Below are positions 11,991 through 55,984 of a stretch of DNA of 64,000 bases, in pieces. Position numbers and translations under genes: made by a program. Numbering within the stretch: position 1 is the stretch's first letter; each line of letters begins with the position of its first letter. Source of the DNA: Eledone cirrhosa (taxonomy: Eukaryota); the NCBI GenBank assembly GCA_964016885.1, contig OZ024746.1:744001-808000 (forward strand), read 5' to 3'. Below the pieces are notes generated by a model that saw only the letters and a program-made list of their open reading frames with translations, had not been told where the DNA came from and did no database searches.

Positions 11991-12501
11991 TATTTTTAAA
12001 TTCATTTTTTTTAAATAATCAAAAATATGAAGGATTTAATTAAATTGGGTGGAAAAAATCTAAAAAATAAATAAACGGTTGTGGGAGAATTATTCGATAC
12101 CCGAGAGTTATAATGAAACAGTTAAGCTATATTACTAAATTCCTCGAAAGTCTTCAATATTTTCAAAATATATTGAAACACACTGACAGAGTATTTAATT
12201 AGAAATCTGATAATAAATCGGTTAATCTGATTATTAGTAAATATGTTAACTGGCGTTCAATGAGATTTTTCTTTATTTAAGTAGTTTGGTTGAATTTGTT
12301 TATGTAAGAATAGGTCAAGAATTATCATTATCACCATCACCATCAACATCACAATGATCACCTTCACCATCATCATTACAATCACAATCATCCTCATCAC
12401 CACCACTACCATGCCGCCACCACCACATCCCCTACTACCACAATCTGTGCCACATACAAAACATTAAATTCCAATGACTCAATCAGAAGCTATAACACAC
12501 A

Positions 12502-13039: not shown

Positions 13040-13230
13040 GAAAGAGATATAGAGGAAGAATTGACGCCAATACTAGACTGGTACTTGTTTTATCAACCTT
13101 GAACTGGGTGAAAGACAAAGTTGATCTGAGAGGGATTTGAACTGAGACAGCGGAGAGCTGGAAGAAATACCACAAAGCATTCTATCCAATGTTCTAATGA
13201 CCCTGCCAGTCTATCTGACGTTCTAATGAC
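13040..13230 (-). mobile_element. tRNA-derived SINE copy
   Basis: Minus-strand B box GTTCAAATCCC at about 13132-13142. The body resembles other copies at 22700-22880, 40060-40140, 49100-49235 and 59435-59526 (ACTGGTACTT..TTTTATCGACC..GGATGAAAGGCAAAGT). Confidence 0.7.
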
Positions 13231-13876
13231 CCTGCCATTCTATCTGACATTCGAACCACTCTGCCATTCTATCTGACGTTCTAACCACTCTACCATTCTA
13301 TCAGACGTTCTAACCACTCTACTATTCTATCAGACGTTCTAACCACTCTACCATTCTATCTGACGTTCTAACCACTCTATCATTCTATCTGACGTTCTAA
13401 CTACTCTACCATTCTATCTGACGTTCTAACCACTCTACCATTCTATCTGACGTTCTAACCACTCTACCATTCTATCTGACGTTCTAACCACTCTACCATT
13501 CTATCTGACGTTCTAACCACTCTATCATTCTATCTGACGTTCTAACCACTCTACCATTCTATCTGACGTTCTAACCACTCTATCATTCTATCTGACGTTC
13601 TAACCACTCTACCATTCTATCTGACGTTCTAACCACTCTACCATTCTATCTGACGTTCTAACCACTCTACCATTCTATCTGACGTTCTAACCACTCTATC
13701 ATTCTATCTGACGTTCTAACCACTCTATCATTCTATCTGACGTTCTAACCACTCTATCATTCTATCTGACGTTCTAACCACTCTATCATTCTATCTGACG
13801 TTCTAACCACTCTATCATTCTATCTGACGTTCTAACCACTCTATCATTCTATCTGACGTTCTAACCACTCTACCAA
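13190..13876. repeat. 29-bp minisatellite (TTCTATCTGACGTTCTAACCACTCTACCA), about 23 units
   Basis: Visible period of 29 (units at 13441, 13470 and so on). First units are more divergent. Confidence 0.97.
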
Positions 13877-20300: not shown

Positions 20301-20858
20301 GTCTGGGGGTCATTCCACTCCAATAACAGTCAGTAGGGATGTAGTCTGGGGGTCAACTCCACTCCAATAACAGTCAGTAGGGATGTAGTCTAGGGGTCAT
20401 TCCACTCCAATAACAGTCAGTAAGGATGTTGTCTGGGGGTCAACTCCACTCCAATAACAGTGAGTAGGGATGTAGTCTGGGGGTCATTCCACTCCACTAA
20501 CTGTGAGTAGGGACGTAGTCTGGGGGTCAACTCCACCCCAATAACAGTCAGTAGGGATATAGTCTGGGGGTCAACTCCACCCCAATAACAGTCAGTAGGG
20601 ATATAGTCTGGGGGTCAACTCCACGCCAATAACAGGCAGTAGGGATGTAGTCTGGGGTCAACTCCACTCCAATAACAGTGAGTACGGATGTAGTCTGGGG
20701 GTCATTCCACTCCAAAAACAGTGAGTAAGGATGTAGTCTGGGGGTCATTCCACTCCAATAACAGTCAGTAGGGATGTAGTCAGGGGGTCAACTCCACTCC
20801 AATAACAGTGAGTAGGGATGTAGTCTGGGGGTCATTCTACTCCAAAAACAGTGAGTAA
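14335..20858. repeat. 43/44-bp tandem satellite (CACTCCAATAACAGTCAGTAGGGATGTAGTCTGGGGGTCATTC), roughly 150 units
   Basis: Directly visible periodicity, with variant units (CAACTC, TCAGGAGG, GAAGGG) recurring in blocks. Confidence 0.98.
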
Positions 20859-34515: not shown

Positions 34516-34590
34516 ATGGCGGCTTATGAGGGTCATGTAGCAAAGCGTCAAAAAACTGAAAATAATGGATATGGAATGAACCAAGGAAAA
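34516..34590 (+). CDS. HNRNPL: hnRNP L exon 1 (MAAYEGHVAKRQKTENNGYGMNQGK; NLS-like KRQKTE)
   Basis: AAAATGGCGGC start context. GTAAGT donor at 34591. Phase 0 matches exon 2. Confidence 0.85.
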
Positions 34591-37500
34591 GTAAGTGCTT
34601 GGACATTTTTAGCTTAGATATTTTTGTATATATAAAAAAAAAACTATTAATATATATATATATATATAGAGATATATATAATTCAATTTTAAATTTTAGA
34701 GTGAAAGTCAATTTGTACACACACACACACACACACACACATATGTGTGTATAATGCAAATAATGTTCCAGGAAAATGTGTAAAAAGTGATATTGGTGTG
34801 TGATGTGTTTTTAGTTTTCTTGGCTGGGTTGCAATAAATTAGAAATTGTTAGAGAATTGATTGGAAATTGAAATCTATTTAGTTAATGGAGATATTTTAA
34901 AATATCAGAAAATGTGGAATTTTCCCCTTTTTTTCTCTTTAATTTACTAACCTCTTATTTTCACTTCTTCACATAATATTATATAATTATTGTTTGAGGT
35001 TTCTGATTTCTAATACATTGTTAAATATATAATTGTTTTTTACAATATAGTTTCTTTTAAAAATCTCTTAATATCTTCCATAAAACATTTCAGCAACATA
35101 AATATAGATTATTTATATTTGAAATATTAAATTATAGATATTTGATATTTGTGACCGCATGGCTTAGTGTAAAGAAGAAATGATGGCTACAAACATCTTT
35201 TATAATGTGAAATAAACCTTTATAAACTCTCTTGGAATATTTCCCCCTTTTAATTAGTTTTTAATGTTTTAATATCTAAACCTTAATGACAATTAGTATT
35301 AAGACAGTAACAACGACCTCATATTTTATTTTTCATTTACAAAAGACACAGACATAGCTTTCCTTTCCTCCCTGGTATTTCTCTCCCTATTCTACCTTAT
35401 GACTAATATATTACAAAATAAAGGGCTTTGATGGGGGAGGAAACTGCTCCACAAAATAAAGGGGATCCATCAACTATTTCTCTCCCTATTTCTCATATCT
35501 TATGACTAATATATTTACTTCACAGAAAATAAAGGGGATCCATGAAGTATTATTAAAAGGAATAATATATTTCTACTCCAGAGAAAAAAAGGGATTCATG
35601 AAATATATAAAAAATAAATAAAATGTGATATTTTTCTGTTTCTCTTTTATTAAACATTCCCAACTATTGTTGGTTTATATAAAAATTTCATTTACATTTA
35701 AATTGTTGCACAATTTTCTTATTTGAAATTGTTAGCTTTTGATAATATAATGAATATTTCTTAAAATACTATATATTTTCTTTGTAAAAGAAATATAATG
35801 TAGAGATCACTACGAATGGTTGAATATTTTAAATTTCCATATTAAAAAAAAAAAAATCATTAAAAATGGAGGAGGGGACACTTAAAGGAAGAATATTTTC
35901 TAAATTCTGTGTCAAAAATGTTGCTGGCAATGTGTTTATTATATGGTTGAATGGAAGTTTTGTTGCTGAAGATGTGGCGAGCAACTTATCACAGCCAACT
36001 ACTTGCCAAAGTAGCCATGTTCAACTTGTATCGAAAATAAAATCGATGTGACCTTTTTATTATTTCTTCTCTGTCCTGGCTAAGAAACCATTATTTCTTC
36101 TCTGTCCGATTGTGATCGTCATGGAGGTTTTTAATTTCCACTTGGAACATCTAGGAAATACAATATGTATTTATATCAAATGGGATATGCTGCTTAACAT
36201 TATTGGCGCTAGTTTATATATAGCATCAATCTCCTTTGTTGTAAAATTATAGAATATGGAGATTACGAGTGAAAAAAATGCCAAGAATTTGTCATGTCTC
36301 TCTTTACATATTTGTCTCCATTATTAAAGCTGCTTAAGAAATATTGCAATGATTTAATTTATTTTCCCACTCCCAGTTTTCAATTAATGTCAGGACCTTA
36401 CTCTTAATCCCCCCCCCCCCCCCCCATTATTTCAACTAGTGCTTATTACTAAAATTTTAATTAAAACATTCAACATATTTATTTTTTATTAAACCAGTGT
36501 TGCATTTAATGAGTGCGAGAGATTCTGCCACTAATTTATTTGGGACTAGAAATATTTGAAATGTGTGTAAATCACTGTCCCGTACAAATAGGTTTTTTTT
36601 TAACCGTTAAAACTCCTCTTCAACTAATTGGTTGCACTCGTCATCCCTGTTCTCCTCCCCCTCTCTCTTGTCATACACTGACCAACACTCCTCCTCCTCC
36701 TTACTGCGACTGCGCAAACCTCGGGTTTCCTCTCCTCCTCCTTTTCCTCAGTTTAATGGAGGTGGGATATTACACTAGAAATCTTAACACTCAGCACTGC
36801 TCTCTTTTTATTTTACTTTACAAATATACTCGACTTCCATCGAAAGAGAACAAGAAACAATTGAAATATCTAATACTTGGAAGTTACTCTCTGTTGCCAT
36901 TGTTCAATGCGTAAGATAAAAGTATTTGTCTTGTCATTGTCCTCCGTTTTACATTACTCATCGCCGATGAATCATTAAAATATTACATATGTAAAGTATT
37001 TTAAAAAGATTAGATGTATCTTTTTATTTTTAATAATTTATTGTCAGTTTTAGTGTCCTTGTTAGCTTTATTAAAGATCTACTCACATTCAATCAATCGA
37101 TAGAAATAATTTATTAAATATGAAATTTATATATTAGATTCTATTTTATTTTTAATGATGTTTGTGTCTCAGTTTTAAGAAGGCGTATTATCGAAAGTGT
37201 TAAGCTAGTTTTCGAATGATTTACATTTTTCTACATGAATTTAGTGGTTTTACTTAGGTTTTTAAAATATAAATTCTATATTTTACTAATTTGACAGGAT
37301 AAATTAATGGAAGATCCTCACAAACCATCACCATCACCCGTGGTACATGTCCGTGGTCTCTCTGAGACTGTGGTAGAGCAAGACTTGGTTGATACCTTGC
37401 AGAACTTCGGATGCATTAGGTAAGTTCTCCTCCACATCTTATAGTCTCTTGTTTTACCGTTCATATGTGTGCTTAATGATAGTAAATATTTTTCGAATAG

Positions 37501-40500
37501 GCTATGTAACCGGTAAACCCTAAAGGGACGCAACATACATCGCTATAGCATTTCACCCTATCTTTTGCGTAAAGCCTAACGAATGGTCGGCTAAATGATT
37601 TTATGTTGTTTAACAATAGTGGAAAACGTTAACTGAGGCCGCAAATCGTGGTGTCTGACACTCTGACCGGTTACATAGTCTCTTCAACATTTTTTTGCGT
37701 AGTTATATCATTATTCCTCTCTTTCAGTTATGTAATCATGATGCCAAAGAAGAGACAGGCTCTGGTTGAGTTTGAGGTGAGTTGATTTTATATTGGATTA
37801 TTTGGTGGCTATCATCACTTGGTTAATACATCCATTCACAATTTAAGATTTTTTTTAAACAAGGAGGTAAATTTTGTAAAATGCAACATTAAATTTGAAC
37901 TTATAAAATATACTATAAGGGTAAATATAATGGAATGTTTTAAAACTACAAAATGATCATGTCATTCCTATTACAGGTAAATAAAATATTGCATGAAACC
38001 ACAATCATCATCATCATTTAACGTCTATCTTCTACGCTAGCATGGGTTAGACGAGAATTGAGGCAAGATTGATCGGGTGACTCACATAGCAAAACATTTT
38101 TGAAAAGTACAAAATTAACTGCATCACTTTAATATTACACATTTTGACATTTTCTGGTGACATATATTGTTTACTGTTGTAGGATATGTGTGGAGCAACT
38201 GAATGTGTAAACTATGTTCAGTCCAATCAACTCTATGTTAGTGGTCACCCAGCTTTCTTCAACTTCTCTACTAGTCAGAAGATCCAGAGACCAGGGTAAG
38301 TTATAGTTTATATATCCATGTATAGATCTTGTCATACCATATATATAACTATGTTGCATCTTTCCCCATGAAAATATGATGTAAAAATGAAATAACATGC
38401 AACTTAATAATCTGAATTTAAAATATATATGGTACATTGTAGGTGTAAAATAGTGTGTACTATATATAGGTAGATGACAGGTTTACTGATGTACTACGAG
38501 TAAGGATGAGAGGCGTGAGGTGATCTATATTATAAAGCAATGTGTTGGTGTGAATTGGGATGTTAGAAATGGTTTAGCCTCGTTGGTGCTCAGGAGAAGG
38601 AGGCTTGAAACTATTATGAATGGTTGGAGGTGGAGTGGCTATCAAAATTGATACTTATAGGGTCTCAAAGAAGCAAGAGGGTGCTGTACCAGTTGAAATA
38701 ATGAGCTAATACATGTGGTATCCAATAACTAGTGTATCTGTATAATTGTTGTTAGAAGGCTTTAGAAATGAAACTTCAGGTGTAAAGCTGATGGACCAAT
38801 GGAAAAATGTGAAATTAGGTGGAGATATAGTTGTTTTATGTCCGGAATTAGCTCCACAAATGGCCTCTTAATGAAACAATTACAAGCTCCTTTAAGTATC
38901 AGCTGCTATACCTACCATTTGTAGATCTGGAAAAGGCTTTTGATAGTACCATCATCTTGGGGTCCTTACGAAAACCTAGTCCTCAGCCCCCTTCTATTAT
39001 AGATTTTTTTTTTTTTTTTTTTTTTTATATGTTATCTATTGGAAGCACTTGAGAGGAAATTCTCTTGGAGAAACAGAACATAGAATCAAAAAACTTAAAG
39101 AAGGTGGCCATATTTGATATGTAAAGGAGTTTGTAGGAACTCATGAGTGTAAGGTGTACAGCTACAAGAGGTGTGAATAGTGGACAGTAAGAGCAGAGAA
39201 AGCTACCACAGAAATAGTTTCTGATATGTAGGTGACCTAATTAGCTATGGGTCTATGTTGTAAATGGCAATGATGGTTATTTTCGGGAAAAAGAAAATTA
39301 CAGAATATTGGTGTTTTACAAGCATAATATAACCTTCTTTTTTTCAGTGGCCCAGAAGATATGCGGACTGCAAATCATATTTTGCTATTTACCATTTTAA
39401 ATCCACAATATCCAATAACTGTGGTATGTAAAACTCCTTGTTTTCTCATTTTTGTTTGGAATTGTAGAATTACATAACTTATTCACATATTTTACAGAAT
39501 ATTTTAATACCAAAAATATTGTAGCATGGGTGTATGGTTGAGTTACATTCCAAGAATATAAATATACATGTATATTGTTAATTAGATATATTTTTAATTT
39601 TTCAGGAGGTTATGCATACAATCAGTTCTCCATATGGTCAAGTACAAAGAATTGTTATCTTCAAAAAGAACGGTGTCCAAGCAATGGTTGAATATCCTTG
39701 AGCCATGAATGTCATTTTATTTGATTTTTTTTAAACTGCCTTCTAAATTTATGGTCACTTAACTATTCTTACATCTATATATTGAGCAATAGCATGGAGT
39801 GGGAATGAATGGGTGTCCCTTAATTGGATCAGCCCAGCATGTAACTGGTGACTCTAGCCAGACTACTGGAAGCAATCTATAATGCTGCAAATGTTTGTCT
39901 TGCCTGACAAGACAAAACTAAAGTGACCATAATTTCATTGTTTTGGATGTTTCTGCTGGTTTGTAAATTACTGTGAAATATTTAGAAAGGAATAAGTTAA
40001 ATTGCTTGATTTTTATATATAACTAGCTTGTATACACTGTCTATAATGGTTTGATTTTGAGGAAGGGAGAAGTTAATTAAATCGACCCCAGTGTGTGACA
40101 GGTATGTTTTGACCCCGTAAGGATGAAAGGCAAAGCAAACCACGATGATATTGTATACATTTAGCATATTTGAATATTGAATTAAGTTCATAAAATCAAT
40201 GGTCAGGGTGGGTTTGTATTAGTATGTCACAGATGTCGCTTTTCTTTTTTATACATTTGTAAATATTGGTATATTGATATACACACATCCACATTAAGAA
40301 ACTTGTGGTGTGTGTTATGAGGTTTACCTAATATGTCGTGTACATTTAGCTACAGATAGTAAGACTCTTTTTAATTCTATTACATTACATAATATAAAAG
40401 TACTCATTGGAAATTGTGGTTATTTTCCATTGTTTTATATATATCATCATCATCATCATCGTTTAACGTCCATGTTCCACGCTTGCATGGGTTTGGATAT

Positions 40501-43500
40501 ATATATATCCATTTTACTATTCTTTTCTAAAAGATATATTGTGGTATTCCTTAACTATTTGTACATTTGAAAGTGTTGATCAAGCAAAACGTGCTAAGCA
40601 GGCATTGAATGGTGCAGACATTTATTCTGGTTGCTGTACTCTCAAGATTGAGTATGCTAAGGTAAATTTCCAACTTGTCACATTTCACTCTTACAATTTC
40701 TATACACCAAATTTATCAGACTTTGCCTCTATTTTAAAGCAGTTCCTCACTACACTAATTTCAATATAACATTGAGAGAAATGTAAATCTAAATTTTCTT
40801 TACTCATCCTATTTTTGTGGAACTTTGACCAACAGTGTTATACAAGATTGACATTAACCACAGCTTCTGCTGGGTTCAAATGTTATACAGCATTTGTTTT
40901 GGCTCATTCTGGGTTCCTGCTGAGGTCAACTATCTTTGATGTTAACATTCCAGTCCATTAGTTGATTCTTCATCTATCCCACTCTCTCTAGAAGAGATTG
41001 GTTGTATTTAGACTCCACCAAGGAAGCCATGGATGGAATGTCTTATTAAATTAACTTTCATGTCTGGGTTTTTTTCAATTCAGTTCAATATTTTTATTTT
41101 ATGTTTTTATTTTATATTTAGCCTACAAAACTGAATGTTGTCAGAAATGACAATGAAAGTTGGGACTACAGCAATCCCTCTCTTGGTAAGATGTAGTTTT
41201 TTAACATTTCTAAACTTAAGGACACCAGCACTGTTATTCTCCTTTCTAGAACTGGTGATAATCTTTCTTAACCTTCGCACTATCCAGTTGTAAATGACGA
41301 TAACTTGCTTAACTCTAACCTATTGAATATTGCAAGCCAAAGGCATGGCTGTAGTTTGTAATAATAGTTGCTACTAACATCTTCAACTCCCTTTTCTTCA
41401 ACACTAAGCAACCAAAACAATAAAATTACTTACTTTCTTGGTTTCTTAGTAATGTCTTCTGGTCTTGTTTAGAGTATTCTCTTCTCTTGCTTAATTGGAA
41501 TAGTTTGTGTGCAAGTTTTTCCTTTGATTCCATAACGGTGCTAGTGGACGACAATACTATTAAAGCAGAACTTAAGGAATTGCTCACCTTTGCTTAGCAG
41601 ATAGCCCAGTGGTGGGAAATCTCCTAGTCAAATTTCTCTGGATAGTGTCTTTTAAATTGGTATAATTTATATTGGAATGTTTTGGTTGTGGTGTACTAAT
41701 AAATTTTTCTAGGTATTAAGTTACCTTCTCATTTAAGGTAGGTGGTTTTAAAATTGTTTGTCCAGGGGATTTTCAATCATTAACTTGTAAAACATAAACT
41801 TTTTTAATTGGGAATTTTGCCTAATAGGTTTCTTTTGGGGGTTTGGTTTAAGGGGTAGACTGCATGCATTACAAAAACACAAGTGGCCATTTCAGATTAC
41901 AAAACAAAGCATTTATCTCCAAAATATTTGCATCAATTATAGAATGAAAACCTTTCAATTACAAAACATTTTCTAAATGTCGTGTCAAATATACTTCAAT
42001 AAACAAACATTCCAAATTTCGTTCCAAAAAAAACATGCACATTTTCTCGAGCACAATCATTTGTATCCTTTGTAAATGACGTGATGACCATGTGCTGACA
42101 GGCAGGGAACTGCTATTGTCTGAAAGATGGTGATGGTATGTTAGTGCCCGGTGAAACCACTTGTTTGTGAAGTTATTCACTAGTTTTATTCTGCACTAGC
42201 TTTTTACATTTAGCCAATTTAAAGTTTAAGTGGTTCCCACAATTTTTCTTTTAATATATATATATAATTTAAAATTTTGAACATTAAAAAAATTTGCCAG
42301 CCCTTTTTTAAACAGTTGCGAAGCAAGTTGTTTGCTGTCTGAGATGCCATCCTTTCCAAATCCCAAACATGAAGACAAAGTTATCTATCTTGAAAGAAAA
42401 AAAAAACATTCGAAAACAAAACTTAAAACATAATTACACAAACATTTGGGTTTTTCTGAAACCTATAAATATAAGACAGCCACATTTAATGTAGAAATCT
42501 AGTGGACATATTACCTTAATGTTCAGAAGTTGTACATCTTCCACCTTTCTATCCAGCAAAATTACAAACAGAAGCAGCCATTCTACATCTAGAACAATAG
42601 AAAAAGTTGCAGCATAAACTCAAGCACAGAAAGATATCAACAACATCCACACAACTCATCTGACCGCCCCACAGGTCAGACTGGAGCATTCTCCACCTGC
42701 AGACAGACTTCCCATAACACAGAAGAAGCACTATTCAGTCAGTCAGACAAAAGTACAACAAGCAAACAATATACAATATCATCATCACCACCACCATCAC
42801 TACCAAGCAGATATACTCACCACCGCACAGAACAAAACATAAAGAGGCCAGGTCCACACAAGGTGACACTATACCCTGTAAACCCATCCATCTGTCTGAC
42901 TCCTACGCTTGTTTGCCTTCCTACAACCAAATCTGGTTAGTTTACTGACCTGTGATTCTGTGTGCATTATACAGGGTGTAGGCCAGTGCAGGCCCGGCCC
43001 TCCTGCTACTACTACTACTGCTGCTGGATGATGATGAGGAGGAGGAGGAAAATGTGTGCAGCATCATGTTGATTGAACCATATCAGGCTCAACTACTTGT
43101 GACCAACAACTACTTGTGACTTTAAACCAAATCGTCATGGCTTCTTCCAATGCTGTTATCTCACCAGAAAATCAACTGGTAGATTTTTTATTTTTCTCCT
43201 TATTTTCCAGGATGTCTTTTATTTTAAAAAAATATTTTTTTAATAATTAAGTTTTCTATATTTATATATATATTTTTTTTTACCACTAATTTTTATTGCT
43301 CTGAAGCCATTTAAGATGTTGGCTTGCTTTCAAAATATCTTGACATGCTCATCTAACATAGAAATTAGGCTATTATGAAATTATTTACTTTCTTTACTTT
43401 AATATTTTTATACATTAATCTTTTTATAATGCTGGAACCTTTTTAGAACAAATGGAAGGTGTAGTCATATTAAATGTGATTTCATTACTGTACGCTGGCT

Positions 43501-46056
43501 GACTGCTGCTGCTGTTACTACCAGATTGTATTGCAACAGATATAGTTTGGAAATCAAGGAACATTGAGTTTGTATACAGAGCAATACTGGTTTCATTGAC
43601 AAGAAGCTATAATCTAAATACTTGTACATGTACACCAAACAACACACATAGGCTGGTTTAAGTATAATTATGTAAGCAGAATAAACCCAGTGAAATGTTA
43701 ATTTTTCAATGCATCCAAATTTCAAGTAGAATTTAACATTTTTCGTTTTAAAACTATGGAATTTTTTCTTTTCTTTTCTTTTCTTTTCTTTTCTTTTCTT
43801 TTCTTTTTTTTAAATAAATTAGTGTGGTGTGGATAACTAAATTAAAACTTTCTCAATTGTTCCCTACCTGTCCTTATATTGTACTATGTAATATCTCAGC
43901 CATCTGACAAGCTTTTCCCCTCATAACAAAACATTTGGATTTAATCTTGTTATGCTTCCTTAAATATATTAAAAAAATTTTTACTTCAACCTCTTCACAT
44001 TCAATCGGTTTCACTTTATTAAATGATTTGTGAAATGCAAACTCCTTTCCATTTATTTTTTAAAATGTATGTATAAAAAAAAAACCTTATATATATATAT
44101 ATGCATTAGTTTATATTGCTGGGGTGAATCTTCCGTTCATTGGTAAGTTCTATTTGTAACATCTTTGGGTAGAAAATTTCCAGTTACATTTATTTCGTTT
44201 TTGTGTGTGGGATCATATGTTGACTTCTTTTCCCCTTTTTTTCTTCTTCTCTCCTCCACTCCTTTCTATCTTCATGTGATAATGGTCCAAATCACTGTAG
44301 TGAGTTTTCTTGTACAGAATTAATATTTGCCGGATCTTGCAACTGGGCTTTTCTTTATCCAACTCTTCGTCTCCTTCCACCACAGGACTTCACTACATTC
44401 TTCTTAGGATGTAGATTTTCTTTCTGGAGGACACAAAGCAAGCTGTTTTATTACATAAGTGCATGAACTGGTTAAATCTTAAAATCATTGGGATATATTA
44501 AACATTTTTTGAAAGGACTAAAGGACTAGGTGAATATGAAATAGTTCCATTTATGAAAATGCACAACTTGTGCTTGATTTTAATACATATTCCGTGCCAA
44601 ATCTCGTTGGTGAAGCTAATTTGCTCACTACATCTACAAATTATTTGCCCAATTTATGTTAGTTTTTATATTCACACATTCGAATGTTTACGGGTTTTTT
44701 AATACCTTTTTTTTTTCTTTTTCTTTTTTTCTTTTTTTTTTTTATTATACACTAAAGTTTTGTTTCGTAATTCAGGATTATAATTTTAGTTAGGTTTTTA
44801 TTGCTATATTTTCTAACAATAATTAAAAATGGTTGGTAATTTCTATTGATCGATCTTATGCCAGCCAAAATCTTAGTAAATTCTTTCAGCTGAGAAAGTT
44901 AAAACTCTAGTATACTAAAAAGGCAACAGCAGTCAGTTTATCTGCGGTTTGTTTGGCAAACTAGTAACTTTACTGTCTGCCGCTTTCCTTGCTTGCTCTG
45001 AGACTTATCTCACCTGTGTCAATTTGTTTCAGGTAAGAGTCCTGTGGTTGCTAAAAATCAGCCTTTGCTGCAAGATCCGCGCTATGCACCAGGGCCCACT
45101 CCCTATGGTGAGTGTCCTCAATCACCAGGTGAAGTATTGTTCTAAAGCTCCATTTTCTTCCTAGTTGTTGTCACATCTCTTAATTGCTCTAGTTTTCAGT
45201 TGCATAAAGTTTAAAATAGAAGAGCTTCTCTGTCTTGGTTACTAGAATTTAAGCAAGTTATTATAAACTCAGTCTATTTGTTTTGACATTTTGGTGCCAG
45301 TTTTCCATACTGACATGGGTTGGGTTGCAGAGAGGACTACATGGGTCACACGTGGATTAAATGGTGCATATAAGCAAATTTTTATTATGACCTAAAATTT
45401 TTAATGTAAAATCTTCAAATATTTTGAAACTTTGCCAATTTGTGGTGTTTAGCTTCACAGAAAATGGCAGGCAGTTGATATTGTGGTATTTTTTTAATAT
45501 GCCTTGTGTATCAATCTCTGCATGATTATCACATTTACATACGTTTAAATTTTGTGACTATATGTCATTTCCTGTGATATCTTGCCTAACTTTGTGGATT
45601 TGAATCTGGTTGGTTTTCAAAGAATTGAAATATACAACCTTATATTGCTAATTAAGCTTGATTAGGAATAACTTGAAAACCTTGTGGTTTACTATAAATA
45701 TATGTATGAAAATTCCTCTTTTATGAGTTTATAGTAACTTTTTTCCCCCCTCATTTACGAGTTTATAGTAACTTTTTTCCCCCCTCATTTACTTTGTTCA
45801 GTTTTTTAGTATTTCATATTAGCAAACTGTACAAAATGAAATACATTTGTGGGCTAGAATGAAACGAAATTCTTTAGTTTTCAAATTAAGTAATTTTGCA
45901 CAGAAATTATTTATTAGAACCATTTAATATTTCGTTATTTGCTTGCTGAATTTAATTCCAATTGTGATCGAAACTCTAATTTGCCATAATATTGATTTGC
46001 TTCATTTTATTCATTTGTTTATTTTTCATATCTAAAGAAGTTGGACTCTTGGGTAA

Positions 46057-46104
<48 letters not shown>

Positions 46105-46911
46105 CTTCTCCTCTCTCTTTCTCCTACTTCCATTTTTATTTTCTTGGATGATTGCTTTTCTAGTGCTTGCTAGTCGTGTCATCTAAGATGTTGTAAAGTT
46201 ACTGTTGTGCTACCTAGTATGTTTTGACTACTATTCCTTTCGTTGGCATTAACACAGTCTATAATTTTCTGGGGTTGGGCTTTGGGCTAGATATAGTTGG
46301 TACTGGACTTTTTTTTTTTCTAGTGTCATCCTCATTGTTTGTGTTTTGTGGCAGCTTTGTCTTTTGCCACACCCCTCTCTCACTCCTATACCTCTATAAA
46401 TATGTGTATATATATTTTTAGATACATACATACATACATGAAATATAAATGGAAATGGGTTTTGTTTATACTGCTGCTTGCTCTGGTTCTTTTCATGTAT
46501 CATGTGAAATGGATTCACAGAGAAAGTTGGTATTATGTGTGGCCATCAACTTCTGAGATTTGTTTATGAATTTTTTAATTTATTCTTCACTAAAATCATC
46601 CATTCAGTTGCCCTCTTTTGTAGATTCTATTGAGAAATGGAGTTTTGCTATCGTTTTAATTGGATTGTTACAAATGTGCAAATTTTGTCTTTTACATTGT
46701 ACTGAGTGAGCTTCCTACCATTTCTGCAATGAAGTACTATTGAAAATGTTGTCTATAATAATGGTTGATTCGGATTTTTTTTATTTTTATTTTTTATTTT
46801 TTTTTCCTTCTTTTTTAAAAAAGTTTTTGAGTGACATTGAATAAATCCCATAATTATTCACTTCCACGAAAATAGAATGAAGATAATTAAAGGCTAGATG
46901 ATGCTTAATAG

Positions 46912-46962
<51 letters not shown>

Positions 46963-49900
46963 TTTGGGAGATTTATAATTCCTGCCTTGTTTTGTCTTGC
47001 CAATCTCCATTTTAATTTGCTTTTTTTTTTTTTTTTTTTTTTTTTTTTGCATTAGTCTTCATTCTTATCTTTTGCTTTCACTCTTAATACACAATGTGCC
47101 ACTAATTTTCCTTGCATGCTTTAATAAGTCACTCCATTGAAAGCACTTTCAATAATTAGCAATAAACCTTTTTTTTATATGAAATAATGGAAAATGTTTT
47201 TGAGCTGCTTTTGTGTAACTTTACTGGAGAATGGCATCACCAGTAAATGGCAAACATTTAGAATTCCAGTATCATTCATCATCTGGTGTTAATAGTGAAA
47301 TGGATCATGATTTAGAAAATATTTTGGTAATGCTGTGTTGCAATGAGTTTTTCTCATGGATAGAAGGAAACTTCAGTTGGAAACTATGAAGAAGAGATTT
47401 GAGGAATTTAACCCAACCCTTCAGTGACTATTTTTAATAAAGTACACTCCATTTCAATTGGGGTTTACTAAAATTATTTTGTTCCCAAGATAGTAATGTA
47501 ACATGGTTTTTATATAAAATTTGTAGGTTGATTTTACTTTAAATAGGAACCTTTTAAAATGGGTAGTTTTATTTCATAGAACTTTAGTGAGTTTGGTCAT
47601 GTTGGTATCAAAAATGTGAATACCTATTTTCATGTCACTGGTTTTTCATCCTTGAACCATTAAATATTTTGATTTTATTTCTGGTGAAACTAACCCTTTA
47701 GGGATATGTTTCTCATGAAATACGTATTTCAGATTATTTTATTTAAATGTGTTACTAAAATATCTTTTAATGTGACAAACCTTTTAGATAAAATTTTTTG
47801 ATTTAGATCTAAACAATGATGATGATTCTAAATTGGACAGTTTTATGACAGGAGGGTTGATGTTTTAAAATAGTTTTAATTAAAATTTGCTATTTTTATT
47901 ACTAAATCTTTGGATCATAACTTAATAGAAATCTTATTTAAAATTGTTGGCTGTGGGTTTTGCTGCTTATTTTTACTTCTTGCCATTCTTTCATGCTTAC
48001 TTTCCAGACATGGCATTTTATTTTAAATCATTTTACAAATTGAGATCTAATTAAAATTGATTTGGTGAAATATTTTTACATTTCTCTTAACTGCTTATAT
48101 CGATGTTTGTGTTGACATATTATTAGTTGTTATAAATTTAAATTTTAGGATCTCATCCAGATGTTCGAAGAGGTGGTGGTGGAGGTCCTGGTATGGGTCC
48201 CCCACCTGGTGGTCATGGATATGGTACACCAGGTCCCATTTATGATGGTGATAACTATGACAACTATTGTGGTGGTGGTGGAGGAGGTGGCCGTGGTGGT
48301 TATGGTATGCAAACTGAGCGTTATGGACCTGGCAGTACTGGAATTCTTGTAAGTATTTGTGTAGATAATGTTCAACAGTTACCTTTTGACAGTCCTATTT
48401 TCTGAGTTTGGAGAAACTCTAGCCATTCTCTACACTTGTATGTTGAGCATGTGGCCATGAAGGGGTAGTGAAATACATGTGACCATGTTTGTAGAATAGC
48501 ATGTCTGGAGTTGAGGCAAGATTTTGTGTACTGATTTTGACATGGAGCCTATTGATTCTTAACATTCTAATGGCTTTGGTAATTCAAATTTCTTCATCCA
48601 CTTATTCCTGTGGGGGCAGTTCTTAAATGTGACCATTTCAGGCCCATCGCCAGTTTTTACGGCATGGAATGGAGAATGTCTTGCTAATGTTTCATACCGT
48701 ATGTTAAGAGTTAATGGTTCTTTAAAATGGAGCAATTGAAAACATTGATCTGATTGTCTAAATCAAAAGTTCAATAAGCAGGAGAATGTAATTGCGTATT
48801 GATTTTAACTATCTTTTCAACTATTGGAATTAAGGAAATCTAAGAGATATAAGCTGTTTTTAGTTGGAGGATGTTTAGATTTTATTGAAATTTAAATAAA
48901 GTTGTGCATTATCAATTTATTAAAATCCAATGAGTCTAGTTGAATGCATTTGTGGTGCCATATTGTTATATGGCGTTTCTAGGGCTTAAACCTGGCAGAG
49001 CCCATCTCTTTAGATCTGAGTACAGTAGGTTTCTTCAAGAGTAGTGTGAATGGAAGTGTGAATGAAAGAGATATAGAGAAAGAATGGAAGTGTGAATGAA
49101 AGAGATATAGAGAAAGAATTGATCCCAGCACTTGACTGGTACTTCTGTTATCGACCTGGAATGGATGAAAGGCAAAGTTAAACTTGGAAATGAAACGAAT
49201 ACCATAAAGTTTTCTAGCGTTCTAACGACTTGTGTGGTTCAATAGCAATCAGTAATCGGTACATGTGGGGTAATGAAATAATTAATTTTTGTAAATCATT
49301 TCAAATTCTTCATTAATTAATTGAAATATTGTATTTTATTAGAGGTACATTCATGAGAGTTTGCTAAAGTCTAGGGTTGTTTTTTTATTTCCTCCTAGGA
49401 CCGTTATGGTGCTCCACCAATGCCACCATATGAAGATCCTAATTCCCGTATGATGGGCCACAACCAAAGTGGTGGTGGCGCCAATGGTCCACAACAAGGA
49501 GCAGTACTTATGGTTTATGGCCTCAATATGGATAAAATTAACTGTGATTCAATTTTCAATTTGTTCTGCCTTTATGGTAATGTGGTACGGGTGAGTGTTC
49601 ATTTTATTCTTATAGAATTTAAATTTTTTAATTGAACTTTGAATTATATATAATTGTTTGTTTTATTTTATTTATTAGATTAAGTTCTTAAAAAGCAAAG
49701 AAGGCTCAGCAATGATCCAAATGGGCGATGGTCAAGCGGTGGAGCGAGTCATTCAAAATCTCAACAGCTGCTACTTTCTTGGTAAAAAGATACAATTGGG
49801 GTTAGTATTTTTTGGCTTATTTTCTTGGTGCGTTGTTTTGATACAGCAAGTGACCCTGCATTTGTTGGAGACTGAACAACTGGAGCCCCTAAATGCAACA

Positions 49901-52900
49901 GTGTAGGGGACTTGCTAAACTACATGCTTGTTTGTAAAAGTTATACTCCAATAATGAGAACTAGGCATATTTCTAAATACCTAGAGATTATTGGCGATTT
50001 TCAAATTTAATTGAAAACTGGGCATTGGCGTGTTTCATTAGAAATATACTAATAGAAGGGTTTATAACAGTTGAATCAGAAACTACAAGAATTTCAGAGT
50101 TGGTGCAGTAATGCACCAGCTTCAGCAATCAGAAGGGAGATAATGGAGCTAAACTACTTGGATGCTGATGGGTTATAGTGATGACATGAATGGTTCATTC
50201 ATGAATATATATTTGGTATTAGGAAATAATAGTAATAAAAGGATGAGTGAGAGACCTTTTTAGCATTCGCATTAATTTTCAAATGTCATGTTTATCTGTT
50301 CGCATTATTTTGAGTTAATCGTACTCAATAGGGTTATCAATTTTATTTGTTTGTAATTTTCTTAATTTTCTATGTGCAGTCTTGAAATTTTGTCAGATGT
50401 TTAAATATCAATAATTTACAATTATATAATTTTACCCGATTTTTTTTATTTTTTTTTTATTAAATTTGACTTTTATGGGCAGGTGAAATTAAGAGGCATT
50501 TGAAGTATCAACCAGGTGCAAATACTGGTTTAATTTTAAATACGTTGTTTTCGGCATAATACATGATATATAAGGATCACTAAACCTTATACCAGTGTTC
50601 CAGTAATTCCAGTCTTGGAAATTTTTTTTATACCAAACATAATATTTACGGTAAAAAATGCTTGCATTTCCGCAGCATTCGCCAAACAGATCGGGTTTTC
50701 CTCGATTTGAAATCTTGTTGGGCATATCGATTAATCTCTTCTGCTACAACTTCAAAGAAAGTTTGTGGTAAAAAACAAACAGAAATAATCCAGTGCTTTA
50801 GCATCGGGAGCTAATGAGTATTGTGGACCAGTATTTTGAATAAAATCAGGAACATATATTGGTGTGGTATTTTTCAACCACGTTGCTGTAATATTTTCAA
50901 TGGTGTTCTGGAGATCTCCTTCGTTTTCACTTTCAAAACAACAATCATCGTCGGATGAAATTTCAGAAATGTAAACATCTGATTCATTTGAAGATAAATC
51001 ACTAATATTATCGTTTGATTCTTGTTTATTCTGAATGTCATCGTATGTAAAACCTTCAAAGTCGGTATCGTTACTTTCACAAGCCATGTTGATACACAAA
51101 AGATCTGTTCTACTTTTAACGTTAAAAAAACACGTTGTTTTAAGTTGTTTCGCTATGTTAAGTGTTAATTTTCATACTAAGGACCTAATCTCGAATTGAC
51201 GAGATTTTGATGATGGTATTTATTTTTAGAAGGATATTTTAGTGCGAGTGTTATTGGGCGGTTTGAACACTAAAGGGTTAAGGCCTTCAATTTTTTTCCT
51301 TGTGAAAATGTTATTTTCATAATGGTGGGGAGAAAAGAATTATATTGGCAAGGGTGGAGCTTTGAAATAGATTTTTCTACTAAAATTATTCTGTATCTAT
51401 TTAAAATCTTTGCAGCAGTGATATACTTTTCCTTGTGATAATTTTGAGTTTCTTTATTACAGATATTCTAAGCAAGCTTTTCTGCAGGATGTTCCCAATC
51501 CACACACTCTTCCAGATGGATCGCCATCGTTCAAAGATTTTATGGGCAGTAGGAACAACCGTTTCACTAACCCGGAAGCTGCAAGCAAGAATCATATCCT
51601 TTTTGATTTTATATTAATTTCTGGTTATATGATGAAAAACTGTTTCCACATATAGTGTTCGAACTTTTAAGTGCATTTCCTTATCTATTAGATTTTTAGA
51701 ATGATCTAATTGAAATAATGCCCCTGGTTCTTTGAAACAGTCTTCTTCACCTACTTATTCCTGGGAGGGTCATGTACCTTCCTGTAGGTCCTCTCGGAAA
51801 CAACTGTCTTAAATTGGTCTGACTGGATCTCTGAGCAAGACCTGTAGAGCTGGTAGATGTTAATTTCCTCTCGGTCTTCTGCCAGTTGGTTTTACCCGTA
51901 TTCTTTCCTGTGACATTTTAACTACATGTCCGTAATAGCAAAGCTGTGATCTCTCAATTGAAACAAGTAGTATCTCTACCTGGAATGGCTCTCTCTCTGA
52001 GCCACTTGTTTTAAATCAAAATCTTCCAATATTCCAGCATAATTTTATATATGTTTAATGAAATAATGATTTTCTTCATTGTCCACATATTCCTGAGAGA
52101 GTTGTGGGGCAGTGTCCTATCAGAAGTGACCATATCCAACCATCTTCCTCTGGGTTTCCTGCCAGTTGGTTTTGCCCATAAAATCTGTCCAGTGATTCTT
52201 TCCTGAAACAATCTAAACACATGCTTTAGAATCAAAGCTGTGATCTATCAATTCGGAGAAGTAACAGCTCTACCTGGAGTGACTGATCTCTGAGCTACAC
52301 TCTATCGAGTAACATTACTCCAAAGACCCTTCAGAGGAATCCCATTTCAGCTACTTATATTCATGATAGTATTTTTAGTCAATCTTCAAAATTCTTCATT
52401 AATTAGTTATTTGTTTGGCTTTAGTTTCTAAGATTTGTGTTTGTCCTTAACCTGTATTAAGTATCCAAGGGCCTGCTAAAGTACTACACTATTTCAATGC
52501 TCCACCCAACATAACAGAGGATGAAATCTGTCAGGTTAGTTAATATTTATTTTTGGTGTGATTACTATATTGTGTACTAGCAGTGGTACCTGGCGTTGCA
52601 CGAGATGAGGTATTTTGGAACGCGGGCCGCCAACAGACCTAATCTTGGAGAAAATAAACCGAATACTCTGATGGCTGGATAATCTTTAAGATTTCCTCGA
52701 TGAAGCAGGAAAAATGCAGGTTTTCACCTAAGAGATCAAGAAAATGAATTTGTTTTTATGTGCATAATATGCCTTAAAATTTTGGGAAAATCGGCTAGAC
52801 GTAACGCCTCCAAAAAGTCCTGAAAAAATGAAGTTTTTCACCTAATGCGGGCCCTAGGCCATAAAAAGTTGGATTTTCTTTTGCTCATGGTATGAAGAAG

Positions 52901-55258
52901 AGACTGACTAATACATAGTTACAATTTCAAGGAAATCAGTCCGACGTAACGCCTCAAAAAACCCCTGAAAAAACGCAGTTTTAGATCAAAACGTTGAAAC
53001 ATAAGTAATACACATGTAAAGTTTGAAAAAAATCGGTTGGGTTTTAGGGATTCAAACTCAGACAGACATCCTCAGGGAAGTGACGTAATACAGACAGATA
53101 TTATAAGGGCGCGACGTTATATGTATCTATCTAAAAAGAGAAAGACTAAGAATTATAGAGAGAGCTCACTTAATGCGGTAGCTAGGGCATTGAAAATTTG
53201 AATTTTTTTTTATCAGAACACTCCCTGAAACATAAGTATTACATGTGTAAAGTTTGAAAACAGTCGGTTGGATGGTTATCGAGTTTTAGGGATTCAAACT
53301 CACACACACAGACATCCTCAGTTTTATATATATAGATAACGTTAATTAATTAACAATTTCTCTTGGTTGTCTCCGTTGATTTTAAAAAAAAAAAAATGTT
53401 TAGATTACATATTTATTACATATTACATTTATTTTATAATTATGGGATTTCTTGTAATGTACTTTGTCGGGTATGTTTTTTAGTGTCTAAAGAAAATTAT
53501 TGCATTCACCGGAGATAAATGGGGGGAGGGGTAACATTGTTATAAGGCCTGAGTATTGTTAAAATGTTGTTGAATTATTTACTAAACATCCATGAGAGAC
53601 TGAGTAGTAAAATGTGAGATTTTGGTCAATAACATGTTACGGGTTTACAAACAAATGTCTATGCCTATTCTACAGGAGGGGGTGGGGGTTTCTATATACA
53701 CAAGGATATATGGTATAAAAAAAAAAACGTATTAATTTATTTGCATCATCTTGCTAGCTCTAATTGAGTAAATATATATTACAGGTGTTTACAGATGCTG
53801 GAGCAAAAAGTCCTGTAAGGATTAAACAGTTTCCTTCCCGCAGTAAGTATCTAATTCCTTTGTGTAGCTGTGTTTGTTTTTTTGTGGGAAAGTGGGGTTA
53901 ACTCCTCTTAATGTCCTGTACTACATGGAACCACATTAGCAAGACATTCTTGAAAAGTACAAAACAGCGTTAAAGAATTAATGGCTTTACTCTATGGAAT
54001 GGTGTCCAGCCATAGAAACCAAGCCAAAATAAGTTCATCTGAACTGGCTTGTCTCACTATGGGACAACTCATCTAACCCATGCTAGCATGGAAATATGGA
54101 TGTTAACTGATAATGATGACTAATACTGCACATTTTCAGTAACTGAATGGACATTTGTCAGTCTCCATTTGTGTTATGAGTGGATTAGACTGAGCATTTC
54201 ACACATGCCCTTACCTTTATGTTATATGGGAGGAGGTGACAAGGCTGGCCTTTTGTAATACAGCTATAGTTGACCTGAGGCTGTGATATTAACACTTCTT
54301 TATGGGCTTATTTGTTTTATGCTGTATGCTAAACTATTAGAGAATGTTAAACAATGTATTGGGTAAGCTAATTAGTTTCACTTGATATTTGTTTCAGCGG
54401 AAAGAAGTTCTACTGGGCTGGTTGAATTTGAAACCAAATCTGATGCTATTGAAGGCCTTCTGGCTTGTAACCATCAAAGTATTCCTAATCCTAGTAAGCA
54501 CTCCTTTTCTTTTTCTACTTTAACAATGTGTTTGAATGTGTATTGTCTGATTATAAATATGTGGGATTAGATTGGTTTGGAAGAAATTGTAAATATATCC
54601 TAAAGAAGAAAATGTTTATTTATCCCAAAGTTATTGTCTTTCTTGACATAAATTTTCCTATCTGAAGTTGATTTTGTTTATCTAAAACTCAATGTGTCAA
54701 ATCTTGTCCTCCTTACACTAGATATTAAGGAAGTTATTACTAAATACTTCCAAATTGAGTGAGTTTTCAAAATGAAATAGAAATATGGAGAGGATTAACA
54801 GTGCTCCTTTGTAATGTAGTATATTGTCTATGGTTAACTTTGACCAAGAGTTGGCTAGTGAGAAATGTTATGAAAGTGGTGGAGTGAATTCAGATGCCTT
54901 CAAATGTTCATTATCTTGTTTTCAGGTTTTAAAGAAACTAAATTTATTTGCAATTTACTATGCTAAATTCTGTGATATACTTACAACTGATAAAACATGT
55001 AAACATCTAGTTAAGGCACCTGCATTGTCTTAGTGAAATATACTTGCTTGCCCAAATATTTTAGTTTTTTAGTCCCTAGGGATATAAGCCATTTCTTGGG
55101 CTTGTTTGAAAGTAAGAGGTTACCAATGAAAGGGTTTCTTTTGTATGACAGGGACTCATTCTTCACAGTATTGTTTTTGTTTTTTTTTGTTCATTTCAGA
55201 TGGCAAGAATCCATTTGTCTTCAAGCTGTGCTTCTCTCAGACCCCTATAATGGGTTAA
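34516..55258 (+). CDS. HNRNPL: Heterogeneous nuclear ribonucleoprotein L (hnRNP L / smooth-like); full coding span, 17 exons, 562 aa, 4 RRMs
   Basis: Manual splicing gives an uninterrupted 1689-nt ORF with hnRNP L signatures: DPHKPSPSPVVHVRGL, MPKKRQALVEFE, NFSTSQKIQRPG, RIVIFKKNGVQAMVEF, ALNGADIYSGCCTLKIEYAKPTKLNV, VLMVYGL...FNLFCLYGNV, SRNNRFTNPEAASKNRI, ERSSTGLVEFE, KLCFS. Confidence 0.95.
37298..37419 (+). CDS. HNRNPL: hnRNP L exon 2 (RRM1 start)
   Basis: ACAG acceptor, DKLMEDPHKPSPSPVVHVRGLSE..., GTAAGT donor, phase 2. Confidence 0.95.
37728..37776 (+). CDS. HNRNPL: hnRNP L exon 3
   Basis: TTTCAG acceptor, YVIMMPKKRQALVEFE, GTGAGT donor. Confidence 0.95.
38183..38295 (+). CDS. HNRNPL: hnRNP L exon 4
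   Basis: GTAG acceptor, DMCGATECVNY...GHPAFFNFSTSQKIQRPG, GTAAGT donor. Confidence 0.95.
39348..39423 (+). CDS. HNRNPL: hnRNP L exon 5 (RRM2 start)
   Basis: TTTCAG acceptor, NHILLFTILNPQYPITV, GTATGT donor. Confidence 0.95.
39606..39691 (+). CDS. HNRNPL: hnRNP L exon 6
   Basis: EVMHTISSPYGQVQRIVIFKKNGVQAMVE; ends at the U12 donor ATATCCTT. Confidence 0.93.
39692..40564 (+). other. HNRNPL: U12-type (minor spliceosome) AT-AC intron
   Basis: 5' ATATCCTT, branch site TTCCTTAAC at 40547-40555, ends TAC at 40564. Joining restores AMVE-FESVD. Confidence 0.93.
40565..40661 (+). CDS. HNRNPL: hnRNP L exon 7
   Basis: FESVDQAKRAKQALNGADIYSGCCTLKIEYAK, GTAAAT donor. Confidence 0.95.
41122..41185 (+). 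CDS. HNRNPL: hnRNP L exon 8
   Basis: TTAG acceptor, PTKLNVVRNDNESWDYSNPSL, GTAAGA donor, phase 1. Confidence 0.95.
41860..42890 (+). promoter_or_regulatory. CA-rich intronic cluster, candidate hnRNP L binding region (densest at 42545-42870)
   Basis: Dense ACA/CAC/ACAA motifs and strong A/C bias on the sense strand in otherwise T-rich introns, immediately upstream of a candidate poison exon. Confidence 0.7.
42975..43178 (+). other. HNRNPL: Candidate poison cassette exon (premature stop, NMD-inducing) of hnRNP L
   Basis: Branch-like TACTGAC near 42943-42949, TACAG acceptor ending 42974, in-frame TGA at 43070-43072 after phase-1 joining to exon 8. Putative weak donor CTG/GTAGAT at 43179, so the 3' end is less certain. 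Confidence 0.62.
45033..45107 (+). CDS. HNRNPL: hnRNP L exon 9 (75 nt, symmetric phase 1-1, linker)
   Basis: TTTCAG acceptor, GKSPVVAKNQPLLQDPRYAPGPTPY, GTGAGT donor. Confidence 0.82.
48149..48348 (+). CDS. HNRNPL: hnRNP L exon 10 (Gly/Pro/Tyr-rich linker)
   Basis: TTAG acceptor, SHPDVRRGGGGGPGMGPPPGGHGY...GSTGIL, GTAAGT donor. Confidence 0.9.
49399..49590 (+). CDS. HNRNPL: hnRNP L exon 11 (RRM3 start)
   Basis: CCTAG acceptor, QGAVLMVYGLNMDKINCDSIFNLFCLYGNVVR, GTGAGT donor. Confidence 0.96.
49679..49800 (+). CDS. HNRNPL: hnRNP L exon 12
   Basis: IKFLKSKEGSAMIQMGDGQAVERVIQNLN...KIQLG, GTTAGT donor. Confidence 0.95.
50255..51281 (-). mobile_element. Internally deleted piggyBac-like DNA transposon in intron 12
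   Basis: The right end reads TTAACCCTTTAGTGTTC on the minus strand (TTAA target at 51278-51281); the left end CCTTTTTAGCATTC is a degenerate inverted copy. ORF 50752-51099(-) has an acidic N-terminus plus W...F...GP...LDYFCLFFT, typical of PGBD-like transposase N-termini. Confidence 0.7.
51463..51593 (+). CDS. HNRNPL: hnRNP L exon 13
   Basis: TACAG acceptor, YSKQAFLQDVPNPHTLPDGSPSFKDFMGSRNNRFTNPEAASKN; ends at the U12 donor ATATCCTT. Confidence 0.95.
51594..52460 (+). other. HNRNPL: U12-type intron with AT-AA termini
   Basis: 5' ATATCCTTTT, branch TCCTTAAC at 52444-52451. Only splicing after TTAA (52460) restores KN-RIQGPAKVLHYFNAP. Confidence 0.85.
51770..52385 (-). mobile_element. Two tandem decayed RTE LINE 3' fragments inside the U12 intron
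   Basis: Homology to 29450-29935 (CCAGTTGGTTTT.CCC.TA, GCTGTGATCT..CAATT, CTCTACCTGGA) occurs twice. Confidence 0.75.
52461..52534 (+). CDS. HNRNPL: hnRNP L exon 14 (RRM4 start)
   Basis: RIQGPAKVLHYFNAPPNITEDEICQ, GTTAGT donor. Confidence 0.92.
52576..53337 (+). mobile_element. Non-autonomous Helentron/HINE-like element in intron 14
   Basis: Starts ACTAGC...CCTGGCGTTGCACG and ends TTTTATATATATAGAT. Internal sub-repeats GACGTAACGCCTC (x2) and AAACATAAGTA...AAAGTTTGAAAA...TCGGTTGG (x2). Confidence 0.55.
53785..53842 (+). CDS. HNRNPL: hnRNP L exon 15
   Basis: TACAG acceptor, VFTDAGAKSPVRIKQFPSR, GTAAGT donor, phase 1. Confidence 0.9.
54398..54493 (+). CDS. HNRNPL: hnRNP L exon 16
   Basis: TTTCAG acceptor, TERSSTGLVEFETKSDAIEGLLACNHQSIPNP, GTAAGC donor. 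Confidence 0.95.
55200..55258 (+). CDS. HNRNPL: hnRNP L exon 17 (last coding exon)
   Basis: TTTCAG acceptor, NGKNPFVFKLCFSQTPIMG, stop TAA at 55256-55258. Confidence 0.93.
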
Positions 55259-55984
55259 GCTGGTTTGTTGGGTCTCTCATTTTAGGAGTTTACCAACCAT
55301 GGTTGATAAGTTGTATACTTAACCCATATATGTCTATTTGTCTTTATTGATGATAAAATGTCTAGAATCATATGAATTAAATGGAAGCAAGAGAACTCCT
55401 CACTCAGGCATTTTACTTCACTCATGTTCTCCAAAGCTATGTAGCTACCATTATTCATGTCTTAGTTCTTCTCATCATTCACATCATAATTGAAAAAAAA
55501 AATAAATAAAAAAAATTTGACTTCAATCTTTATTTCCTCCTTTTTATTGCCAAGTATCATAAGTTCCTGATTTTTTTGACATGTTTGTTTACTGGGGTGT
55601 GTTACTTTGGGTAGCTTTGCTACCATCAGGTTAACAACCCATTGTAATATATTGAAAATATTGCTGTAGGTCTCATTTCTATTTGCAGTCATAAGTTTAT
55701 AATTTTGGTTTCAGTGTGTATGTATAATACACTGCTTCCTTATTTATTGATGGTCAATTTACATAACATTCTAATGCTTACTGATATATTAAAGTTAGGT
55801 TAACTATCATTTACTTCTTTGCCTGACAGTGTCAAAATACATTTTAGACTTGACCACTGGTTAAATCTTTGAATAAACAAGTTACAATTAAACAAATGCA
55901 GCTTTCTTTCCCCCCTTCTATAATTACTTGTATCCTGAGATTCGTAAAAAGAAAAAAATTGAAAGTTCAATTTTCATTTTCTAA

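Follow-up and report, generated by a model that had tools for sequence, protein, structure and literature searches.

A sense-strand CA cluster in a conserved part of an octopod hnRNP L intron, a candidate counterpart of the vertebrate autoregulatory module

The closest known systems to the locus described here are the human HNRNPL gene itself, SMNDC1/SPF30 and ARGLU1. In 2009, Rossbach and colleagues reportedly described an enhancer in intron 6 of human HNRNPL together with the poison exon 6A, and work said to have come from Lareau and Brenner in 2015 is grouped with SMNDC1/SPF30. Human HNRNPL is a known exception to the repression of exons by CA clusters located upstream of them. Generally, a cassette exon is repressed by a CA cluster in the intron upstream of it, and hnRNP L also governs intron retention and the choice of poly(A) sites (PMC7547044). 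The human poison exon is located in intron 6 (PMC8652244). Exon 6A is listed with a length of 70 nt and as NMD-responsive (PMC6547761, Table 1), with a delta-psi of 0.64 and 0.48 on loss of UPF1 and SMG6, respectively (PMC6547761), and a review remarks that the human exon usually escapes detection in mature RNA (PMC6884704). Smooth, the orthologue in fly, binds CA-rich motifs, as stated in PMC5694756 after Ray 2013. A poison exon of SMNDC1/SPF30 is kept between mammals and plants and its function was tested (PMC11357089), while in ARGLU1 one conserved intronic element leads to spliced, retained and poison isoforms (PMC5389617). The feedback mechanism itself is not new; hnRNP L autoregulation has been described for vertebrates. 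In the open-access literature we found no report of hnRNP L autoregulation in a mollusc or any other invertebrate. The main texts of a study on fly NMD targets (PMC2689934) and of one on ancient conserved DNA (PMC10735318) do not mention the gene, which their supplements could list.

Judged from its sequence, the host gene in the window, the 64,000-nt stretch of DNA that was analyzed, is hnRNP L, present as the sole copy in the genome of an octopod. It encodes four RRMs that are nearer to hnRNP L than to PTB. Using Octopus sinensis hnRNP L as query (P0001), the solved hnRNP L RRMs were matched with E values of about 1e-64, compared with about 1e-19 for PTB. The exon at 49399-49590 is 91% identical to O. 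sinensis hnRNP L and has a single match in the 3.0-Gb genome, and exon 7 equals human RRM2 in 26 of 32 residues. The gene name proposed in the earlier note is thus borne out by the matches to solved RRMs and by the exon identity. Joined, the exons encode an uninterrupted protein, whose length is 562 aa if exon 9 takes its short form and 574 aa if the long form is combined with the microexon. Since the octopus genome holds one hnRNP L gene, cross-regulation between L and LL does not come into play. The features of the locus are collected in the table.

Features of the hnRNP L locus in the window (positions are those of the whole stretch)
Feature	Position	Strand	Remarks
hnRNP L gene	34516..55260	+	17 core coding exons plus microexon
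Exon 8	41122..41185	+	64 nt; RRM2 end; phase-1 donor
Intron 8	41186..45032	+	3847 nt; positional counterpart of vertebrate intron 6
Weaker CA-rich segment	41860..42239	+	9.7 CA/100 nt
Core non-tandem CA cluster	42540..42890	+	63 CA, 24 ACA and 6 TG per 351 nt; predicted hnRNP L site
Strong donor-like site	42936..42941	+	rank 2/188
Branch-like TACTGAC (42943-42949), weak UG-rich pyrimidine tract, AG	42943..42974	+	acceptor rank 35/169
Candidate poison exon	42975..43178	+	204 nt; TGA at 43070; purine-rich GAT/GAG run; within conserved block
Pyrimidine tract and AG	43183..43210	+	top acceptor of the intron, rank 1/169; immediately past the proposed donor
Exon 9, in-frame cassette	45033..45128	+	two donors, after 45107 and after 45128
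In-frame microexon	46038..46052	+	15 nt; loose ends in X1 and X13; isoforms

The position of intron 8 invites comparison with the vertebrate gene. In read-through models the corresponding vertebrate exon starts with PTRLN, ends with NPNLSGQ-G and has the phase of octopus exon 8. Among the matches listed, five of 120 short proteins (P0052, P0054, P0060, P0064 and P0070, including proteins from a bird and a squirrel) continue directly from ...NPNLSGQG with one and the same short foreign tail, and we infer that this tail is vertebrate exon 6A. With that label taken from the shared tail, octopus intron 8 stands at the position of the vertebrate poison-exon intron, as the earlier note had proposed.

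Intron 8 carries a long sense-strand CA cluster that lies above background. The core contains 17.9 CA per 100 nt, compared with 5.1 in the remaining introns of the gene, and it is the top 400-nt CA window of the 64 kb when both strands are considered. The enrichment claimed from a first look at the letters is therefore real, but the length of about 1 kb given for it is too long: the CA-rich sequence consists of the core (42540-42890) and a weaker patch (41860-42239), and the segment between them (42240-42539) has 7.3 CA per 100 nt, no higher than its own shuffle. As background we took the best 350-nt window of each 3.85-kb piece, drawn from both strands of a 200-kb sample of this contig. None of 120 repeat-masked pieces reached the CA density of the core, compared with 15 of 120 unmasked pieces, and all 15 vanished on repeat masking and are microsatellites. 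No tandem array was found by Tandem Repeats Finder in 41186-43390, and the CA tract has a single genomic match in a search that skips very common words. A reading of the tract as a tandem repeat or mobile element was consequently rejected. A structured non-coding RNA in the intron found no support either, since Rfam returned only two sub-threshold matches (E values of 0.25 and 0.73) and folding of 42860-43220 did not go beyond shuffles (z of -0.33).

In octopods, the CA tract and the block downstream of it are better conserved than other parts of intron 8. Taking the alignable remainder of intron 8 as baseline, we aligned two relatives and compared one more by its share of words. In run X1 we counted 50 substitutions in 788 nt (6.3%) over 42433-43220, compared with 148 in 1286 nt (11.5%) in other alignable intron sequence (p=8e-5). 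In run X13 the cluster and block had 85 substitutions in 1272 nt (6.7%), compared with 107 in 903 nt (11.8%) elsewhere (p=4e-5). About 58-62% of intron 8 can be aligned in the relatives and about 40% cannot, so that the baseline is conservative. The third relative, X23, has introns 5 and 6 of very different length from those in the window, yet 0.22 of the 31-letter words sampled from 42500-43300 are still present in it; judged by coverage, which is a weak measure, its cover is seemingly full over 42822-43015 and slight over 42434-42821. Runs from organisms B, D and E gave word shares of about 0.2, which we left out of the evidence. The two aligned relatives bear out the conserved non-coding block that had been expected in this intron, with a divergence of about 6.5% for tract and block against about 11.5% elsewhere. 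Measured over whole aligned stretches, this conservation does not pin down where an exon would begin or end. Short triplet runs occur inside the conserved block.

Within this block the earlier note had placed a poison exon, and the letters on which it relied are all present. The branch-like motif and a TACAG ending at 42974 are found in the sequence, the in-frame TGA (43070-43072) stands 106 nt ahead of the GT at 43179, and the alternative CAG ending at 42991 leads to a TGA at 43117, 59 nt ahead of the donor. The segment, described as GC-richer, has 47% GC. We dropped the stop codon as evidence for a poison exon, because 2166 of 2248 random 204-nt intron pieces (96%) likewise run into a stop that lies over 50 nt ahead of their end. 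Scored with a small splice-site matrix built from 15 of the gene's own acceptors and 16 of its donors, the proposed acceptor at 42975 ranks 35th among the 169 AGs of intron 8 and the proposed donor at 43179 ranks 25th among its 188 GTs. The sequence features of the candidate exon are no better than chance.

Stronger sites lie close by. An acceptor at 42527 (rank 10/169) combined with the donor at 42936 delimits a candidate 409-nt exon that would shift the frame and that encloses the CA cluster. The acceptor at 43211, if used, leads to a stop after 5 codons, and its region is alignable up to 43220 in X1 and up to 43223 in X13. We keep 42975-43178 as the first candidate for a poison exon, although that it has exactly these ends is doubtful, and regard 42527-42935 and an exon beginning at 43211 as its alternatives. 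Among the best 120 of 150 protein matches, no cephalopod protein ends in the peptide of the candidate exon, and a 25-nt pattern of the block had 0 matches in metagenome contigs. Further downstream, a putative 33-nt in-frame microexon at 44110-44142 has the best donor of the intron (rank 1/188) and an acceptor of rank 9/169; the region is alignable in X1 and X13, and the microexon is absent from all 21 aligned cephalopod proteins.

Transcript contigs were aligned over 39330-45130 for four of 24 runs, all of them assembled contigs from which rare forms drop out. Because spliced joints are present in them, X19, X1 and X13 were treated as RNA. X19 is probably the same species, since its long intron piece is identical to the window. 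The joint upstream of exon 8 (40661->41122) is present in X19, and the joint 41185->45033, which removes intron 8, was found in X19 and X13. Exon 9 appears in the contigs as 97-nt pieces (45032-45128). Single unspliced contigs cross both 42975 and 43179 in X19 (41875-43754), X1 (42433-43220) and X13 (41952-43223), showing that the unspliced form exists in RNA. Among the joints listed for contigs of the four runs, in which rare forms are dropped, none lies at 42975 or 43178. High depth in the bin 43016-43209 was discarded as evidence for inclusion, since the DNA-like run X23 behaves likewise and the triplet runs draw unrelated contigs.

The gene also contains two introns of the minor spliceosome. 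The U12 intron at 39692-40564 is of the AT-AC type with the donor ATATCCTT and the branch TCCTTAAC; X19 contains the spliced joint, and model P0024 of Octopus vulgaris wrongly reads through the intron. The second U12-type intron (51594-52460) has the rare ends AT-AA, and the gene models of Sepia and O. vulgaris are broken at this position. Only 8 AT-AA introns are counted across five species in Table 2 of PMC1557818. Cutting after ...TATTAA yields the conserved KNRIQ, while use of the AG one base further on results in a frameshift and a stop, and it is possible that this choice between AT-AA and AG forms a second unproductive switch. In intron 12, at about 50490-51200, the minus strand holds acidic ORF fragments that we take to recall the remnant of a piggyBac-like transposon. 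Upstream of the gene, Tandem Repeats Finder located arrays at 1-11991 (48-nt unit, 254 copies), 13178-13875 (29-nt unit, 24 copies) and 14338-20857 (43-nt unit, 150 copies).

We consider it probable that the CA tract has some use in feedback, and give about an even chance to an hnRNP L feedback that runs via a poison exon in intron 8. In such a loop hnRNP L would bind the CA cluster of its own intron 8, as the CA specificity of the human and fly proteins suggests. By analogy to the human gene, abundant hnRNP L would activate a weak 3' splice site in the conserved block, so that a stop-containing exon in the block just downstream would be spliced in and the message directed to NMD. Destruction of the message would then let the hnRNP L level fall. 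Binding, activation of the weak 3' splice site and NMD are the parts that we infer from the human gene. Four of seven defining features of the human hnRNP L module were found at the octopus locus, namely the gene, the intron, the CA cluster and the conservation, and on this analogy the octopus element likely works like the human module. Both genes are orthologous and carry the intron in phase 1 after the exon that ends RRM2, and in both, a long conserved stretch of the intron has CA-rich sequence followed by an exon-like segment with a stop. In contrast to the 70-nt human exon with its response to UPF1 and SMG6, the octopus candidate has 204 nt and is predicted from its sequence, and the next octopus exon, unlike the human one, is an in-frame cassette. 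With SMNDC1/SPF30 the locus would share that a splicing factor uses unproductive splicing for feedback across great distances; it is, however, a different gene, and hnRNP L keeps only the composition and position of the binding site. Several observations count against the poison-exon reading: the proposed sites are weak and have stronger neighbors, the stop is uninformative and the contigs run unspliced through the region. In addition, exon 9 and the microexon are alternatively spliced in frame, and conservation of the intron next to such exons can be accounted for without a poison exon.

The unspliced contigs lead to another explanation, in which the feedback stands but its output differs: hnRNP L on the cluster would hold intron 8 unspliced, by retention or nuclear detention, or would favor an early 3' end inside it. 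In X19, X1 and X13 these contigs cover the greater part of intron 8 and continue into exon 9, although they may be ordinary pre-mRNA. Mean depth in X19 is about 15 over 41875-45061 against about 3 in pieces of intron 6, a weak indication because it is contig depth. The long contig of X13 stops at 44084 in an A-run, which would fit an early 3' end or else internal priming. Retention would also agree with the roughly 58-62% of the intron that is alignable in relatives, with a read-through that stops 3 codons into intron 8, and with the control that hnRNP L exerts over retention and poly(A) choice elsewhere (PMC7547044). A multi-output intronic element as in ARGLU1 would fit here too, even if gene and motif are unrelated. 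Conservation, however, peaks at motifs resembling splice sites and at a purine-rich segment that looks like an exon, neither of which would be required for retention alone. We regard this explanation as unlikely.

The in-frame cassette exon 9 and the microexon after it form a rival target of the CA element that the earlier note had overlooked. Here, cluster and block would regulate both exons and thereby switch the form of the RRM2-RRM3 linker, not the amount of protein. Octopus and Sepia isoforms skip or include exon 9: the 21 aligned cephalopod proteins include forms with it, without it and with its short version, and several combinations of exon 9 and the microexon occur. Conservation is also good in the flank upstream of exon 9, where X1 has 7 substitutions in 184 nt and X13 has 11 in 233 nt, and CA clusters upstream of cassette exons usually repress them (PMC7547044). 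The core, however, lies about 2.1 kb from the acceptor of exon 9 and directly ahead of the branch-like motif and AG, and vertebrates use the equivalent intron for a poison exon. Such a linker switch seems to us quite unlikely.

Returning to feedback through the CA tract, we examined the equivalent exon elsewhere among invertebrates. In metagenomes, 79 hnRNP L loci were found, of which seven with an intron beside this exon were tested; the other 72 were transcripts, had no intron beside the exon or missed the region. The equivalent exon has 64 nt in six of the seven loci and a phase-1 donor in all seven. A sense-strand CA cluster was found in 7/7, with 19-27 CA per 120 nt compared with 8-10 expected, taking the better of two introns per locus. 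The cluster exceeds all control windows of its own locus in five of the seven and is within the top 1% in the remaining two, where control windows overlap. It lies downstream of the exon in L028, L040, L077, L078 and L079 and upstream in L066 and L076. In a tree, the seven loci represent about four lineages: L028 with L040 and L066 with L076 fall into an arthropod-like clade, L077 and L079 group loosely among spiralians and L078 is long-branched, in a topology with weak deep nodes and two misplaced partial proteins (Spermophilus with Tegillarca). The arthropod-like loci are presumably from mites.

Two pairs of loci give some detail. L079 (about 1080-1215) and L077 (about 7695-7825) have a common 137-nt non-coding block of 86% identity, which is their CA cluster; it ends at a shared donor-like CAG|GTGCGC, and a second shared site, GGATG|GT, follows further on. 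In L066 (about 8900-9130) and L076 (about 10600-10820) the cluster is located upstream of the 64-nt exon near its acceptor, and skipping of this exon would shift the frame. That CA clusters stand beside the same exon in 7/7 invertebrate loci with an adjoining intron is what is new here, and this recurrence strengthens the idea of deep conservation. The octopus intron showed no similarity to the seven other introns above reversed controls, so that descent and convergence are indistinguishable here. The recurrence of the clusters fits the earlier suggestion of deep conservation or convergence, but common ancestry does not follow from it. That the element is a decayed microsatellite or a DNA-level enhancer, CA-rich by chance and without splicing feedback, is very improbable: CA microsatellites are common in the genome (15/120 unmasked pieces), the block has short triplet runs, no notable Rfam match and a fold z of -0.33, but the tract is non-tandem with a single genomic match, its divergence is about half that of the remaining intron, same-strand clusters lie beside the equivalent exon in all seven other loci, and an enhancer has no need of the sense strand.

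A bolder reading takes in the other lineages as well. A CA self-sensor may have existed at this exon since the bilaterian ancestor, with position and composition kept rather than sequence and with the output rewired by individual lineages; we consider this a serious possibility, if somewhat short of an even chance. When located in the downstream intron, the sensor would promote inclusion of a poison exon, as in vertebrates, octopus, L028/L040, L077/L079 and L078, and in the upstream intron it would cause skipping of the frameshifting 64-nt exon, as in L066/L076. If this is true, one specific feedback loop would be dated to the bilaterian ancestor, and a regulatory element would have lasted for more than 500 million years without alignable sequence. 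Searches for conserved non-coding DNA that are based on alignment would miss such elements.
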